19,332 nucleotides of DNA, taken from NCBI GenBank assembly GCA_040235515.1, contig JBECKX010000128.1:1-19332 (forward strand), given 5' to 3'. Position 1 is the first letter of the stretch, and each line of letters begins with the position of its first letter. This document shows, piece by piece, positions 1 to 19,332 of the stretch. The position numbers and the translations under genes were made by a program. The notes under the pieces are model-generated. The model saw nothing but the letters and a program-made list of their open reading frames with translations, searched no databases and was not told the DNA's origin. This DNA comes from Candidatus Zixiibacteriota bacterium. Lineage in GTDB: Bacteria; Zixibacteria; MSB-5A5; CAIYYT01.

Positions 1-210
1 ATAGCGGAACTCAAGGAGGGGAGACCTTATCAAGACTTCAAGGGAAAGCGCATGATAACTATGGGCCAGCGCGAAATTATTTCCATCCCTGTCGGCCGTC
101 GATACCGATTGATTTGCTGTGACAAGAAGAGTTCGCTGGAATGCATTGAAGTGATATCGCACGAGGATTACAATAGCCGCTTGTCCTCAGGAGGGTGGTC
201 AGTTGACTAG
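1..210 (+). CDS. 3' end of a protein with a RelE/ParE-like toxin-type C-terminal domain (5' truncated by window edge)
   Basis: Frame 1 is open from base 1 to TAG 208-210: IAELKEGRPYQDFKGKRMITMGQREIISIPVGRRYRLICCDKKSSLECIEVISHEDYNSRLSSGGWSVD. The SIPVGRRYRL and SHEDYN motifs resemble RelE/ParE-fold proteins. Not in the ORF track. Confidence 0.55.
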   Translation: MAELKEGRPYQDFKGKRMITMGQREIISIPVGRRYRLICCDKKSSLECIEVISHEDYNSRLSSGGWSVD

Positions 211-509
211 CTTGTCAGACGAGCCATACAAAGGGCGAACTTCGGTAAGACTCTGAACGTCATGTCTAAGCTAACCTAACACAATATTGGAACCTTTCGC
301 GACAGAGAGTCATCAGTGCTTTTTTGCCAGACTTAATACTCTCTTTCCCCTATATCAACCCTGATGTAGGATCAATCATCCAAGAGTTGATCTGTCGTTC
401 AATGGCTGCCTTTTCCTCGCCAATACGTATGCGTGACAGCTGGACTATGGCTTCTCGGTGATTCTCCCCTATGACTGGTTCTGGCAATGTCCGGGCGTAA
501 GCTTCCCTG

Positions 510-1366
510 TCAAGTAGACAATTCAAAAGTAGAGGTTTCGGCGGTTAAGCGTTCTCGGAAGATAGTCGGTGGAAGATCGTCGAGGGCCTCGTGAGGTCGT
601 CCTTCGTTGTAGTTGATCATCCATTCCGCAGTGATCTCCCGTACCTGATCCAAGTTCTCAAACAAATAGCAGTTTAGCACCTCATCTCTGTATGTCCGGT
701 TAAAGCGTTCAATGAAGGCATTCTGATTCGGCTTGCCCGGCTGGATGTATCTGATCGCAATGCCTTTGTCCTGACAGAAGTCAACCAGCGCCTGTGAGGT
801 CAACTCGGGCCCGTTGTCGCAAATGGCCAGCGGCGTTCCTCGCCAGGTACAGAGTTGCGCCAGCACCCTTACGACTCGCTCACCTGGCAGCGAAGTGTCA
901 ATCTCGATAGCTAACGCCTCCCGCACTCCCTCGTCAATCACATTGAGGGTCCGGAAGCGACGTCCCACAGAGAGGGCGTCACTCATGAAGTCTAATGCCC
1001 AGACCGCATTGGGCTGAGACGGCGTATCAAGCGGCTGTCGATCACGACTCGGAATGCGTTTCTTGGTTCGTCGACGATGTTGCAAACCCAGTTCTGTGTA
1101 CACTCGATATACCTTCTTGTGATTCCAACGGTATCCGTTGTAGCGAAGCTGCTTGTAACTCAACCAGAAGCCCCAGCGTCGATTAGCCTCAGTTACCTTG
1201 GTCAATCTATCACTTCGCGATCTCTCTCCAATCGGTCTGCAGGCGGTTTATACCAGGAAGCTCGCGACATCCCCACCGCAGCGCACGAACGTCCAATTGA
1301 CAACTTATGCTCGGCCACCAGATACGACGCCGCGTCGCGACGCTCGGGCGGCCTCAGAGCTTTTTT
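510..1366 (-). pseudogene. IS3 transposase OrfB (rve/DDE), frameshifted near 1203
   Basis: WALDFM, DNGPE, PGKPNQNAFIERFN and YNEGRPH motifs. The -1 frame from the slip site reads KALRPPERRDAASYLVAEH...EVID then TGA, and continues in another frame as LTKVTE. AICDNG also lacks the usual residue of AIRCDNG. Confidence 0.85.
1330..1366 (-). other. -1 programmed ribosomal frameshift signal (A AAA AAG plus downstream GC-rich sequence)
   Basis: Minus strand AAAAAAG at 1366-1360 at the end of orfA, followed by GC-rich GCCGCCCGAGCGTCGCGACGCGGC. This is the canonical IS3 arrangement. Confidence 0.8.
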
Positions 1367-1620
1367 GAGATTAGGTCCTTAAGGGCATCATTCTCAAGGC
1401 TCAAGTCTGCATATATCCGCTTCAGCTTGGCATTCTCTGCCTCAAGCTCCCGCAGACGACGAACATCCGAGACCTCCAAACCACCATACTTCGACTTCCA
1501 CTGATAGTAGGTCCCGCTGCTGATGCCGTACTTGCGACAGATCTCCGTCACCTTCATCCCGGCATCGGCTTCCTTCAAGATCCCCACTATCTGGGTCTCG
1601 CTGTACTTCGACCGCTTCAT
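1354..1620 (-). CDS. IS3 transposase OrfA (HTH)
   Basis: MKRSKYSETQIVGILKEADAG...TYYQWKSKYGG...RLRELEAENAKLKR. RBS AGGAGG precedes ATG 1620. Confidence 0.92.
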   Translation of the reverse strand: MKRSKYSETQIVGILKEADAGMKVTEICRKYGISSGTYYQWKSKYGGLEVSDVRRLRELEAENAKLKRIYADLSLENDALKDLISKKL

Positions 1621-1975
1621 AGATACCTCCTGACAGCAATATGCCAAAAAACTCTACTTCAGTACAGTCTACTCAGTGGGGAATAATACCGCCGATCCAC
1701 AATTGCGCAAAGAAACTCAATGGTTCGCAGCTGGCTTTCCCCCAACTCTTCCAGCCCACCGAAAACTTCAGTCGGTATCGACGTGATACCCGCTTCTGCC
1801 AGTATTGGTGACACGGGTATTCCGAGTTCCACCAGACCCTTTGCAATGCCGTCAACGTCCGAAATGTCAATGCGGTCACTCAATTGTGCTACCTCCATTA
1901 GAATCTGTTTTAGAGGTGAGGAAATGTGCATTCTCAACTCTCATCAGATTTCAACGGCATGCCGCCCAAGAGCTC

Positions 1976-2004
1976 AGCATAACAGGCGCGTAAGCCCCTG
2001 TCAA
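1976..2004 (-). promoter_or_regulatory. sigma70-type promoter for the IS-interrupted gene
   Basis: Minus strand TTGACA (2004-1999), 17-bp spacer, TATGCT (1981-1976) with a TGn extension. Confidence 0.6.
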
Positions 2005-2034
2005 GCAGCGCCTTAGAGGGTTTCCAGATTCGAC

Positions 2035-2067
2035 TTGATTTACCGTAGCTAGTGTAATATAATTACA
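2035..2067 (+). promoter_or_regulatory. sigma70-type promoter of the GTPase operon with overlapping palindrome
   Basis: TTGATT (2035-2040), 17-bp spacer, TATAAT (2058-2063). Palindrome TGTAAT-ATA-ATTACA at 2053-2067. Confidence 0.65.
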
Positions 2068-2125
2068 TACTTGGAAAAGTGGAGTCTTCGCAGAAATTTT
2101 TCAATTGAGGTGGGCGATTAATTCA

Positions 2126-2941
2126 ATGGACCGTTTTTCTCAGATTCTCATTAAGCACAAAAGGCAGTTTGAGCAGAAACTACGTCAGTTGCTTCCTGAT
2201 TCTACGTCTGAACAGAGGCAGCTTATCATCAAGAGGCTCAGCGAGAGGAAACGCGCGGAAGAGGAAAAACCACCCAAGATAGCCATCATTGGTCAGGCTG
2301 GCGCTGGCAAATCCAGTACTATAAATGCACTATTTGGAACGAGTCTCCCGGTTGGTCATGTTGGAGCATGCACAACCGAAGAAGCCGAACTGAGAGTGGA
2401 AGCTCAAACCGTGGATGGTGCTAACGGAGTGATTACAGTGTTTGACATGCCTGGCCTTGGAGATGATCCCGACCTCGACTGCGCAGAATACAAACAACTT
2501 TATAATCAAGTGCTGAGCGAATGTGACGTAGCCGTGTGGGTGATTAACGCTGCGTCTCGTGCAATGGGATACGATAAGCAGATGATAAGGGACGTCGTCG
2601 CACCATCCCAAGATCAGCTTACTAGTCGTTTGGTGATCGGGCTGAATCAAGTTGATCTTATGCAGCCTGGGAGCTGGTTTCATCGCGCGAATCTGCCTTC
2701 CAAGAGTCAGAAGGAGACAATTGCAAAACGGTTAGAGTACATTATCGAGTTATTCAGGGACATCGTTCCTGGGATAGATGTCTCTCGGATCATCCCGTAT
2801 TCCGCCATGAGGGGTTATCATCTTGAGCAGCTTTTTGAAGCTATGCTAAATGCCTGTGACTCTGACAGGGCGTGGGTATTATATGGTCGAAAGTCAATAG
2901 AAGATTTCGCAGCGACAATAGATCCCGATCTGCTGCGCTAA
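2126..2941 (+). CDS. TRAFAC P-loop GTPase (Era/YeeP/YkfA-like, MMR_HSR1-type) with short N-terminal helical extension
   Basis: G1 GQAGAGKSS, G2 ACTT, G3 DMPG, G4 NQVD, G5 YSA. Start uncertain (TTG 2105 or ATG 2126). Confidence 0.88.
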   Translation: MDRFSQILIKHKRQFEQKLRQLLPDSTSEQRQLIIKRLSERKRAEEEKPPKIAIIGQAGAGKSSTINALFGTSLPVGHVGACTTEEAELRVEAQTVDGANGVITVFDMPGLGDDPDLDCAEYKQLYNQVLSECDVAVWVINAASRAMGYDKQMIRDVVAPSQDQLTSRLVIGLNQVDLMQPGSWFHRANLPSKSQKETIAKRLEYIIELFRDIVPGIDVSRIIPYSAMRGYHLEQLFEAMLNACDSDRAWVLYGRKSIEDFAATIDPDLLR

Positions 2942-2962
2942 GTACAATGAAAGGAGCTATAG

Positions 2963-3196
2963 ATGGGTAGAATCTCAGACGACGACATCAACTACATTGT
3001 CGATGAAGTGAGAGATGAGCTTGGTCAGCTGAGTTCCTCCAGATACCGACAGGTAACGAGAAGCGAGGATTCCTTCATAGGGTGGATCAGAAACCAAGTA
3101 TATGACATTGCCCGCAGCATTGGGCTTATTATATCAGCGCCATTTCGGGCAATATGGGATGCGATTCGCGGTTTCTTTGACGGACTTTTCCGTTAG
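2963..3196 (+). CDS. 77-aa hypothetical protein with amphipathic C-terminus, co-transcribed with the GTPase
   Basis: RBS AAGGAG just upstream; starts 21 bp after the GTPase stop. C-terminus GLIISAPFRAIWDAIRGFFDGLFR. Confidence 0.8.
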   Translation: MGRISDDDINYIVDEVRDELGQLSSSRYRQVTRSEDSFIGWIRNQVYDIARSIGLIISAPFRAIWDAIRGFFDGLFR

Positions 3197-3481: not shown

Positions 3482-4564
3482 ATGTCTCAGAATCTCTACG
3501 AAGCCCACCGCCAGTGGTCAAAGCGCCCTAAGGACGAACGTTTCCCTAATCTTGGTGCATTACGCAAGTATGTGGAGAGCAGAAAACTCGCCTCTGCGGA
3601 GTTGGAGACCAAATTACAGCAGTTTCACATCACTTCCGATGAGAAAGGTGCCATAGTCCTCAACGGCAGTTCAGCACCCTCTCGCCTTACCCATTGGTCA
3701 TTTGGGCAACTATGTACCAATTGGCTTAGAGCACCGGCCTCTTATCTCAGGTCATTGCCCGCAGAACTGACTGTGCAATGTCTACGGGAATCACAAAGGC
3801 GCTATAGTGCCTCTTGTCAGTTACTAAAGAGAGAAATCGAAGGAGACTTCCAGACTCCTGCCAGAACCGACATTGCGGCGCTCACCGGCCCCAGATACAG
3901 CCGTATTTGGGATATTGATGTCGTCAGCACTATAGTCGAGGCGACTCATGATTCCCCGTGGAAGACACCGCCCGCTCATCCCAACAATCAATCAGAGTGC
4001 TCTGGACTCTATGCCTCCGACCGCGACATGTTCGTCTTCATGGTCAATGATGAGCAGTCCTTGGAGATCGACGGCGTCAAACTCGGCAGAGGTTTCTTCT
4101 GCTGGAACTCCGAAACCGGAGCGGCGTCTTTCGGCCTGACCACATTCCTCTACAACTACATTTGCGGCAATCACATCGTATGGGGAGCCGAGGACGTCAA
4201 TGAAATCCGGATCGTACACCGCGACAATGCGGTAAAGCGATTTCATGAAGACGCCCTGCCCGCATTGCAAGCATTCCTTGGCTCATCGCAGCGCAACGCA
4301 GCCATCATGGACGCAGTCAATCGCGCCATGAGGTATCCCGTCGGCACCGATCTTGAGCAAATGCTCAAGTGGGCTGATGACAAACCCTTTTCCAAGCGAG
4401 AGCTAACCAGTGCCTGGGAAATTGGCCAAGCGGAAGGAGAAAATATCAGCACGCTCTGGGGATTGGTTCAAGGACTTACGGCAACTGCGAGGAAGATTCC
4501 GTTCACCAATATCAGGGTGAATCTAGAAAGGAGAGCTGGACAATTGCTCAAAGCGGCAGCCTGA
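3482..4564 (+). CDS. DUF932-domain protein (plasmid/phage/ICE-associated)
   Basis: QWSKRPKDERF, THWSFGQLC, PASYL, LYASDRDMFVFM, RGFFCWNSETG and YICGNHIVWG motifs are characteristic of DUF932 proteins. RBS AAGGAGGAG. Confidence 0.8.
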   Translation: MSQNLYEAHRQWSKRPKDERFPNLGALRKYVESRKLASAELETKLQQFHITSDEKGAIVLNGSSAPSRLTHWSFGQLCTNWLRAPASYLRSLPAELTVQCLRESQRRYSASCQLLKREIEGDFQTPARTDIAALTGPRYSRIWDIDVVSTIVEATHDSPWKTPPAHPNNQSECSGLYASDRDMFVFMVNDEQSLEIDGVKLGRGFFCWNSETGAASFGLTTFLYNYICGNHIVWGAEDVNEIRIVHRDNAVKRFHEDALPALQAFLGSSQRNAAIMDAVNRAMRYPVGTDLEQMLKWADDKPFSKRELTSAWEIGQAEGENISTLWGLVQGLTATARKIPFTNIRVNLERRAGQLLKAAA

Positions 4565-15238: not shown

Positions 15239-17452
<2,214 letters not shown>

Positions 17453-17491
17453 TTAGAATTTTGATGCACATAAAGCGTGCGGTTATTAGAT

Positions 17492-17510
17492 GGTAATTAT
17501 TCTTATTTAG
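17492..17510 (-). promoter_or_regulatory. putative PerR/Fur-type operator upstream of katG
   Basis: CTAAATAAGAATAATTACC, AT-rich, 15/19 identical to the motif upstream of the regulator gene. Confidence 0.65.
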
Positions 17511-17553
17511 ATGCGTACCTGTCCGTATCATAGAGCTAATAAGTCTATTATCA

Positions 17554-17997
17554 CTACTTCCTGCAATTGGAACAAATGCCCTTGATCACGACATGCTTCA
17601 CTTCAACATCACTCCAGTGGTCGATCGAGCTCGGCGGCTTCATCCGGTCAAAGTCAGGCCAGTAGAAGTCCTCGATCTTGTTACAGTTTGAGCACACCAG
17701 GTGGTGGTGATTGGAGACATTCATGTCGAAGCGCGTCGCGTTGTCGATGTGATGCACTCTCTTGATCAAGCCATATTCTTCGAATGTCGCAATGGTTCGA
17801 TAGACCGTATCGAGAGAAATCGATTTCAGGTGCTTTCTTACCTGATTAAATACGTTCTCGGTCGTGGGATGATCGGTATGTTTTATCAAAGCTTTGAAAA
17901 TCTCAGTCCTCTGATGGGTGATTCGCAGCCCCTTCGATTTGAGAGTCTTCTCGAAGGCTTCCATCATCTGAGTCATGTTGATTTTGCTGTTATCCAT
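17554..17997 (-). CDS. perR: Fur-family regulator, PerR-like peroxide sensor
   Basis: HPT, SLDTVYR, RFD, HHHLVCSNC, IEDF (Asp as in PerR rather than the Glu of Fur), C-terminal CSNC. Directly upstream of katG. Confidence 0.85.
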   Translation of the reverse strand: MDNSKINMTQMMEAFEKTLKSKGLRITHQRTEIFKALIKHTDHPTTENVFNQVRKHLKSISLDTVYRTIATFEEYGLIKRVHHIDNATRFDMNVSNHHHLVCSNCNKIEDFYWPDFDRMKPPSSIDHWSDVEVKHVVIKGICSNCRK

Positions 17998-18020: not shown

Positions 18021-18069
18021 GGTAAAAGTTCCTATTTAGGAATATAGGCGAATTAAGCTTTGGAGTCAA
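18021..18069 (-). promoter_or_regulatory. perR promoter with adjacent putative autoregulatory operator
   Basis: TTGACT (18069-18064), 17-bp spacer, TATATT (18046-18041), then CTAAATAGGAACTTTTACC (18039-18021). Confidence 0.68.
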
Positions 18070-18153
18070 CCCCAAGGGAGTGAGTTCTTTGTAAATGCCA
18101 ACGATTCCCGTTAGGGGAGATGCTAAAATCGGCAGCATCGCTCTGAGTGGCCG

Positions 18154-18192
18154 AAAAAAGCAAGGGCCCCTCCCGCCGGAAGGGCCCTTGCT
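18154..18192 (-). terminator. intrinsic terminator of the beta-barrel gene
   Basis: Minus strand GCAAGGGCCC...GGGCCCTTGC followed by TTTTTT. Confidence 0.85.
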
Positions 18193-18276: not shown

Positions 18277-19332
18277 TCAAAATTCGATCCTCACTCCGCC
18301 TCGCACTATAAGCAGTGACCCGGTTTCATCCCCATAAACCCAGCCGCCCGAATCATCCGTAAGATCGCTGTATTCAGCATCAGCCGTCAGAGTTACCCGG
18401 GGGGATAAGAGATATTCGATCCCGAGATTGAGTCGCAGCCACTTGTAGTCGAGATCGGAGTAGGTGTGCATCTCGAGGAAGGTGAAATCCTGGTGACTCA
18501 GGTGACCATCCAGCCTTTCTTCAACTGATGGCATCTCGACCTGCTCCAACTCACCTTTCGACAAATTGTAGTTGGCAAAAGCGGTGAGGATAACCCGAGA
18601 GGATGGAATGAAGCTGACGTTGAGATTGAAATTGTGAATGTTGGCGGTATAATCGCTCATCGTGTACATCGAGCCAAAGTGTTGGCTCAGGGTGACTTCT
18701 TCTCCGTCGACGCTCACGGCGTCGTTAAATATATGGCCCGCTCAGCCATCGAAGAGGGCAACAGCCACCGGCCCCCGCGATTTGTAGTAGTTAAGCGTGT
18801 ATCCTCCACTCAGGGACCACCTCGGCTCCGGCGTGAAAGTCAACTGCAGATTCGGTTGCAGTGAAGTGTGTTTCACATCGAGCGAATCGAGCTTGCTGTT
18901 CTTGTCGAACTTGCCCTTCAATCCGACAAAGATTGAGGTCCGATTTCCGGTGGTGATGGTAGAATTCCACTCGACTTGATGTTCAATGGTCGGCTCGGTT
19001 GTGATATCCTGATAGCGGAGATCCTCCCGTTGATAGTAGAACGCAAACCCGGGCGGGGTAATGATTTCCAGTTCTTCGCGACCGACTCGTTCGAATAACC
19101 CGCGTCCCGAAGTGAAGGGATCAGAAGTGCTGACTATTCGATACTTCAAGTTGGTGGAATACTTCAATCCCTTCCGATAACGCGCTTTCGCTTGCCCGAT
19201 CAGCCGGGTTGTCGTCAATCCATCACCCGGTGTGATGTAGTCCTCGCGGCTGATGTTCTCGACTCCACCCAGGAATGAGAGGGTGAGTCGCGGGTTGACG
19301 CGTGTGGTTACTTCAGCGGACCCCTTCAACTC
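18277..19332 (-). CDS. outer-membrane beta-barrel protein, probable selenoprotein (Sec at TGA 18742-18744); 5' truncated
   Basis: ORFs 18742..19329 and 18277..18717 are in the same frame with one TGA between them: ...VALFDG-U-AGHIFNDAVSVDGEE. Alternating beta-strand pattern on both sides; C-terminal beta-signal GGVRIEF. Confidence 0.82.
18708..18724 (-). other. bacterial SECIS-like hairpin
   Basis: mRNA CGACGC-CGUGA-GCGUCG. The loop starts 23 nt after UGA, with GU at loop positions 2-3. Confidence 0.72.

Follow-up and report, generated by a model that had tools for sequence, protein, structure and literature searches.

A GSU2204 (OmcL)-family outer-membrane barrel gene with a predicted selenocysteine, split over two contigs of a Candidatus Zixiibacteriota genome

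The locus

The window analysed in this work is a stretch of 19,332 nt that makes up the whole of one contig (JBECKX010000128.1, here C5) of the 218-contig assembly GCA_040235515.1 of a Candidatus Zixiibacteriota bacterium. The gene of interest lies on its minus strand at the far end of the contig, which cuts it, and the rest of the gene was located on a second contig, C94. The features of the gene and of its immediate surroundings are as follows.

18277..19332, minus strand: 3' part of the barrel gene, 1,056 nt (351 codons and a stop), cut by the contig end; from translation and from a match of residues 2–196 to NF041027
18742..18744, minus strand: in-frame UGA, predicted to be read as selenocysteine (Sec, U); residue 197 of the fragment and about residue 575 of the full protein, in a conserved column
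18277..18279, minus strand: true stop of the gene, also TGA, after the C-terminal ...VRIEF; from translation, TGA being an ordinary stop in other window genes
18708..18724, minus strand: candidate SECIS hairpin CGACGC-CGUGA-GCGUCG, with a 6-bp stem (18719–18724 with 18708–18713) and the loop CGUGA at 18714–18718
18153..18192, minus strand: hairpin resembling an intrinsic terminator, with a 15-bp stem containing 10 G-C pairs, followed by a T run; 85 nt past the barrel stop
G000:C94, about 20801–21932, plus strand, off the window: 5' part of the barrel gene, matching NF041027 model positions 3–379

Translation of 19332–18280 gave 351 residues in a single frame, the sole internal TGA of which is that at 18742–18744. 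The UGA stands in the context ...VAVALFDG-U-AGHIFND..., and its longer flanks in the window fragment read ...YKSRGPVAVALFDG-U-AGHIFNDAVSVDGEE...; the frame ends in ...GGVRIEF, directly before the TGA stop at 18277–18279. A mechanical ORF list breaks the gene into 18742..19332 (open at its 5' end, 196 aa) and 18277..18717 (146 aa, with a GTG start), which is the split that a first-pass annotation of this DNA had expected of standard pipelines.

That annotation had also held that the two ORFs are one frame interrupted by a single TGA, that the downstream part carries the terminal ..VRIEF which the upstream part lacks, and that the downstream ORF has no convincing ribosome-binding site. All three points were borne out. 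The first agrees with the translation and with the position of the TGA in a conserved column of the homologues; the second agrees with the translation and with the modelled fold, in which the barrel-closing C-terminal strands and the terminal aromatic residue occur only after the TGA; and as regards the third, no Shine–Dalgarno-like run was present within 30 nt before the GTG of the 146-aa ORF.

TGA was the stop codon of four of the 10 window genes checked (the barrel gene and three other confident genes), so that a global reassignment of TGA can be discounted. The TGA at 18742–18744 was also compared with public reads, in which a sense codon would have told against selenocysteine. One Logan contig of a public run spans 18659–18826 with zero differences and retains the TGA; this run may be the source sample and the contig is thus not an independent observation. 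Two public DNA records match the stretch, both of them Logan contigs of a single study, with a low depth of about 4; they cover it in part and do not bridge the contig end, and no RNA run containing the stretch was found.

Assignment to the GSU2204 (OmcL) family

The window fragment matched NF041027, ‘GSU2204 family CXXCH-containing (seleno)protein’ (part 1), over its residues 2–196 (model positions 381–580 of 580, 181.2 bits), and the match stopped at the residue before the UGA. The half on C94 matched model positions 3–379 with 343.8 bits. Each half alone is under the NF041027 cut-off of 350 bits; together they span the model from end to end without overlap and their scores add up to about 525 bits. 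G005, the closest relative with a full-length gene (identity 64 % with the window part and 75 % with the C94 part), scored 545.8 bits against the same cut-off, its match again ending just before U. Further features of the family were also found here, namely a single CXXCH, a UGA right after the part 1 model, a frame that runs on to the barrel C-terminus and a decahaem neighbour. With Pfam, barrel matches to the window fragment were sub-threshold only (PF11854, MtrB_PioB, 13.3 bits, E 0.031, under the gathering threshold of 23), and the C94 half had no match at E ≤ 1e-5.

The barrel gene is an ordinary representative of the GSU2204/OmcL family, which is already known as a selenoprotein family. 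The first-pass annotation had suggested a resemblance to GSU2204-type (seleno)proteins of porin–cytochrome loci, and this is exactly the call made by NCBIfam. With GSU2204 (OmcL) and GSU2203 (OmcK) the present genes share an HMM match that extends from the N-terminus up to the last residue in front of the UGA, the single CXXCH, the UGA after ...DG and the decahaem gene upstream. They differ from GSU2204 in that the relatives named here are, by record title, Zixibacteria, Ignavibacteria, Calditrichota and Krumholzibacteria rather than Geobacter, and in that the present copy is divided between two contigs.

A review from 2026 includes the GSU2204 family in its table of selenoproteins, with one Sec (PMC13188914). 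The OmcK/OmcL genes of Geobacter were up-regulated on haematite and magnetite (PMC4070692), and OmcK/OmcL have been described as a porin–cytochrome conduit in the partner bacteria of ANME by Murali et al. (2023), who noted an unusual gene complement for OmcKL (PMC10553843). MtrAB-like genes of Zixibacteria were noted in 2013 (PMC3903129). The word ‘selenocysteine’ is absent from the passages concerned in the Zixibacteria paper (PMC3903129) and in the OmcKL paper (PMC10553843).

The 5' half of the gene and its neighbourhood

The contig ends (window 19329–19332 and G000:C94:21929–21932) share only the four nucleotides GAGT. Because of this overlap, the agreement of the frames and the HMM positions, which run on without a gap, contigs C5 and C94 are judged from their sequences to abut, with nothing missing between them; both pieces read the same Glu in one column of the protein alignment.

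The C94 half starts with a signal-peptide-like N-terminus and contains one CXXCH motif (CFSCH). Directly upstream of it on C94, and on the same strand, is the gene for a 315-aa protein with 10 CXXCH motifs, which passes the DmsE/MtrA-type decahaem model TIGR03508 (224.1 bits, cut-off 192.2) and falls 5 bits below the cut-off of NF041028, the GSU2203 (OmcK) family (320.2 bits, cut-off 325). A signal peptide, a CXXCH motif and a multihaem cytochrome, the three things that the first-pass annotation had thought worth seeking upstream, were thus all located on C94. In the loci of the full-length relatives, the end of a multihaem gene was found directly upstream of the barrel gene in 34 out of 34 cases. 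The genes upstream of the cytochrome–barrel unit are on the other strand and the terminator-like hairpin follows the barrel stop, which indicates a unit of two genes, the cytochrome and the barrel. Unlike in MtrCAB, no MtrC-like gene is adjacent to this unit.

Directly past the barrel terminator, 15239–17997 (minus strand) encodes a Fur/PerR-family regulator (17554–17997) and a catalase-peroxidase KatG (15239–17443, 1339 bits), with a sigma-70-like promoter match at 18069–18041; the two genes look like a separate oxidative-stress unit. Elsewhere in the window, 510–1205 (minus strand) encodes a 231-aa fragment of an IS3-family transposase, which covers positions 142–368 of a 369-position model and has its N-terminal part missing from the frame, and the DUF932 protein at 3482–4564 may also be derived from a mobile element.

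Conservation of the in-frame UGA

A homologue was identified in 10 of 40 related genomes, at 33–64 % identity, and all 10 possess exactly one TGA. When aligned together with the window sequence, all 11 sequences have this TGA in the same column, after D-G. Among 285 genomes of the phylum, 113 (counting the window's own) had a match, giving 116 match rows, of which 107 contained exactly one TGA; two broken rows had a TGA and a TAG, and six short rows did not reach the site. Query position 197 is covered by 110 rows, 109 of which have a TGA there, the exception being the row of G057 described below. The alternatives posed in the first-pass annotation for the position after FDG were Cys and TGA, and in these rows it is the latter that was found.

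In each of the 38 loci that were fetched, the TGA is inside the motif [LMIVF][LMFIV]-D-G-TGA-[AG]-[AG]. Neither end is cut in 34 of these loci, whose proteins are 718–759 residues long and all have a signal peptide and one CXXCH; the C-terminal residue is aromatic or Leu in all except two (32 of 34). Exactly one CXXCH was present in 36 of the 38 loci, the remaining two being cut at the 5' end.

When 185,579 species genomes were scanned for the motif with TGA, 93 stretches were returned. Eighty of these were fetched and all 80 proved to be relatives (blastp E ≤ 5e-26), with a frame open for about 140–165 codons past the TGA, or for a shorter distance in four, three of which are cut by the end of the fetched stretch. 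In the close homologues the frame stays open past the TGA at 26–64 % identity. According to their record titles, which are quoted as deposited and are in some cases at odds with the genome taxonomy of the search, the 80 stretches come from Zixibacteria (35), Ignavibacteria (14), Calditrichota (6), Krumholzibacteria (5) and other members of the FCB group (9), whilst 11 titles give no lineage. The same scan of 185,579 genomes for the motif with a Cys codon returned 61 pattern matches, none of which was a relative.

H-C-x-x-C-H is nearly invariant within the alignment, in which it and D-G-U number among the best-conserved columns. The UxxH motif, which the first-pass annotation had put forward as a possible redox or metal-binding site, stood up in part: its histidine is frequent, being present in 32 of the 35 alignment rows that cover the position, and is not invariant. 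Four other histidines (H177, H193, H251 and H596 in G005 numbering) are nearly invariant and at least as conserved as that of UxxH. The occurrence of the gene itself is patchy. In the window's family it was found in only one of 20 other genomes, and the window query gave no match in the single genome of the same genus (99 % complete); in other families of the class the gene is common.

G057 is the sole phylum row reaching the site without a TGA, and it encodes a Sec-less relative of the module.

L144 (G057:C59) 53–3130: decahaem cytochrome gene and a 720-aa barrel with the haem motif CQTCH

This relative is distant (21 % identity, or 25 % in the phylum search; NF041027, 326.7 bits). Where the others have Sec it aligns a Gly, and the loop that follows is 16 residues shorter, the missing residues being those encoded by the SECIS in the Sec forms. 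The first-pass annotation had taken Trp, Arg or Gly at this position in homologues as evidence against its reading; Gly occurs in G057 only, and TGA in the other 109 rows. G057 thus indicates that a barrel of this kind does not depend on Sec for its fold.

The SECIS hairpin

The hairpin at 18724–18708 has the 6-bp stem and CGUGA loop of the first-pass annotation and starts, as stated there, 17 nt after the UGA. With the U of this codon as nt 1, it comprises nt 21–37. The bSECIS model specifies a loop of 3–9 nt, a stem of 4–16 bp, a G in the first two loop positions, 16–37 nt between UGA and loop and an energy of ≤ −7.5 kcal/mol (PMC13188914). The window hairpin, with a loop of 5 nt, a stem of 6 bp, a G at loop position 2 followed by U, 23 nt from UGA to loop and −9.2 kcal/mol, agrees with each of these constraints, and no material difference from the bSECIS consensus was seen; the lower stem is not conserved.

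Folding energy alone would not single out this hairpin. Taken by itself it had a z-score of −2.47, with three of 200 shuffles as stable, and the whole 63-nt stretch was ordinary in stability (z −0.02, 96 of 200 shuffles). The case against a chance hairpin rests instead on conservation and covariation. RNAalifold recovered the same helix from the 11 aligned sequences, in which 98.5 % of cells were paired, compared with 76 % in shuffles and 25–64 % in slid controls, and three of the six pairs were compensatory. A covariance model built from these 11 sequences recovered the element in 89 of 100 sources. The hairpin was missed in the other 11 at E ≤ 0.01, and eight of these, when folded, gave hairpins at other spacings. 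Across 67 distinct sequences, whose alignment was fitted to the covariance model and hence leans toward the structure, 94.8 % of cells were paired (75.8 % in shuffles, with none of 500 as high) and five of the six pairs were compensatory; slid controls in the covariation tests had only 17–59 % of cells paired. The peptide encoded by the hairpin varies by clade (NDAVSVD vs NATGGGV), with the helix kept. Agreement with the published constraints and covariation in the homologues both speak for the identification of the hairpin as a SECIS, which had been made at first from the window sequence.

Selenocysteine machinery

Matches over the respective cut-offs were found in the genome for selB (307 bits), selA (459 bits), selD (400 bits) and a tRNA-Sec with the anticodon TCA (66 bits), so that all of the genes by which the first-pass annotation had proposed to check its reading (selA, selB, selC and selD) are accounted for. 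The tRNA-Sec adjoins selA. The latter is split by a contig end (G000:C64:16–1125 and C173:12–218) and its last 70 codons are on C173 directly before selB, the layout therefore being that of a tRNA-Sec–selA–selB cluster. The selD match (309 model positions, G000:C60:27063–27986, L007) is located in an open frame of 759 aa, which may mean that SelD is part of a fusion with another domain. The tRNA-Sec model also matched at G000:C103:1598–1685 (L010), where the score of 49.4 is just over the gathering score of 47; this may be either a second tRNA-Sec or a tRNA with a long arm.

Fold and topology

The fold was modelled on the intact homologue G005 (AlphaFold2, with a 36-row alignment), the window protein being split over two contigs. 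The model (pLDDT 84, pTM 0.76) consists almost entirely of beta strands that form a large barrel; local confidence was pLDDT 57–65 around U and 66 around the CXXCH. A Foldseek search of the PDB with this model gave as its best match MtrB of the Shewanella MtrCAB complex (6r2q_B, E 8.7e-21, TM 0.66/0.73), by far ahead of the next matches, which were TonB-dependent receptors with TM ≤ 0.41. A profile search of the PDB by sequence matched no chain. The porin-like barrel of the first-pass annotation is thus recovered in the model of the homologue as one closed barrel that is closest to MtrB.

The likeness to MtrB (PDB 6R2Q, chain B) extends to gene order, in which a decahaem cytochrome is followed by a barrel. 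In contrast, identity in the structural alignment is 9 % and, as stated above, the Pfam MtrB_PioB score is 13.3 vs 23. The barrel is MtrB-like in its predicted structure and is not a sequence member of PF11854. MtrB is not known to have a covalent haem motif or a Sec.

In outer-membrane proteins, the usual rule is that periplasmic turns are short and outer loops long. In the G005 strand list, followed backward from the periplasmic C-terminus, every second connection has 2–4 residues and the others are long. By this rule, HCFSCH (193–198) and D-G-U (573–575, in a loop of 28 residues) would both be in loops on the cell-surface side of the G005 model. In this barrel, which has about 28 strands, about 14 strands separate the two loops.

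Interpretation and alternatives

Taken together, the window at 18277–19332 is very probably the 3' half of one GSU2204 (OmcL) gene of about 730 codons, the product of which would be an exported, MtrB-like outer-membrane barrel with one c-type haem motif (CFSCH) and one selenocysteine. That a single gene is read through the UGA as selenocysteine is supported by the comparison of homologous sequences. On this comparative evidence, SelB and Sec-tRNA(Sec), recruited by the hairpin 17 nt downstream, would recode the UGA at 18742–18744, and the ribosome would go on for 154 codons past it to the C-terminal ...VRIEF of the barrel. The exported protein would gain one haem and would insert in the outer membrane around the decahaem cytochrome. 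The fold, the gene order and the literature on OmcK/OmcL suggest that the barrel probably sheathes the GSU2203/OmcK-type decahaem cytochrome as MtrB sheathes MtrA, the two genes forming an electron conduit across the outer membrane.

The alternative that survives best accepts the insertion of Sec and differs in the role of Sec only. The barrel would then be no passive sheath; its own haem and Sec would make up a site on the cell surface for catalysis or for the exit of electrons, for example to minerals, metalloids or partner cells. We regard this as possible and rather doubtful. It is favoured by the two-gene nature of the unit, with no MtrC-like surface cytochrome gene between the opposite-strand genes upstream and the terminator, and by the unusual OmcKL gene complement reported by Murali et al. 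(PMC10553843); the conservation of HCxxCH and D-G-U, the location of both motifs on the long-loop side of the G005 model and the failure to find a Cys variant point the same way. However, with some 14 strands between the loops a contact of haem and Sec is not obvious, and the nearly invariant histidines H177, H193, H251 and H596 could serve as haem ligands in its place.

A more specific and still less probable form of this idea would make Sec and the covalent haem of the barrel a surface-exposed redox site at the outer mouth, and the OmcKL-type module a complete conduit without an MtrC-like cytochrome. Selenium would be indispensable to such a site, since no Cys form of the motif was found among relatives in the 185,579 species genomes. 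Nearly all selenoproteins have Cys homologues, and a missing Cys form is unusual.

The remaining alternatives concern the UGA itself. The TGA might be a real stop, in which case the locus would contain either a shortened barrel gene with a small independent gene behind it or a pseudogene in decay. TGA is, after all, an ordinary stop in this genome and a GTG-initiated ORF of 146 aa lies downstream. Against this, every close homologue examined has a TGA in the same column and a frame that stays open and conserved for about 140–165 codons beyond it; the strands that close the barrel, together with its terminal aromatic residue, are encoded only past the TGA; the GTG has no Shine–Dalgarno run; and the hairpin covaries. 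A real stop is accordingly very improbable. We consider it equally improbable that the UGA is read as a residue other than Sec (Trp, Cys or Gly), whether by near-cognate decoding or through a variant code. The Gly aligned by the Sec-less G057 would fit such a reading, but the genome has the full Sec machinery, the hairpin is of the SECIS type with its loop G at the canonical distance and covaries, TGA ends other genes, and no homologue with a Cys codon at the motif was found in the 185,579 genomes. Least probable of all is that a sense codon was turned into TGA by an error in sequencing or assembly; the assembly is fragmented, a contig end falls within the gene and the depth in public contigs is low, but TGA is at the same place in more than 100 independent assemblies and the Logan contig over 18659–18826, perhaps of the same sample, shows no difference. 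A variant genetic code, a pseudogene and a sequencing error were rejected on the grounds of the conserved TGA, the covarying hairpin and the TGA stops elsewhere.

Significance

The finding of a selenocysteine gene at this locus is correct and already known for the family, and what it provides for this genome is an annotation fix, not a discovery. The two window fragments and the piece on the other contig are to be merged as one Sec gene; without this, the outer-membrane electron conduit of the organism looks broken. The observations added in this work are that no Cys form of the motif was found among relatives in 185,579 species genomes, that one Sec-less relative has the loop deleted, and that occurrence of the gene in the window's family is patchy. 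An outer-membrane selenoprotein that has its own haem, and apparently no Cys counterparts, poses a question for extracellular electron transfer that concerns the family as a whole rather than this window, and OmcL of Geobacter is a tractable member of that family.
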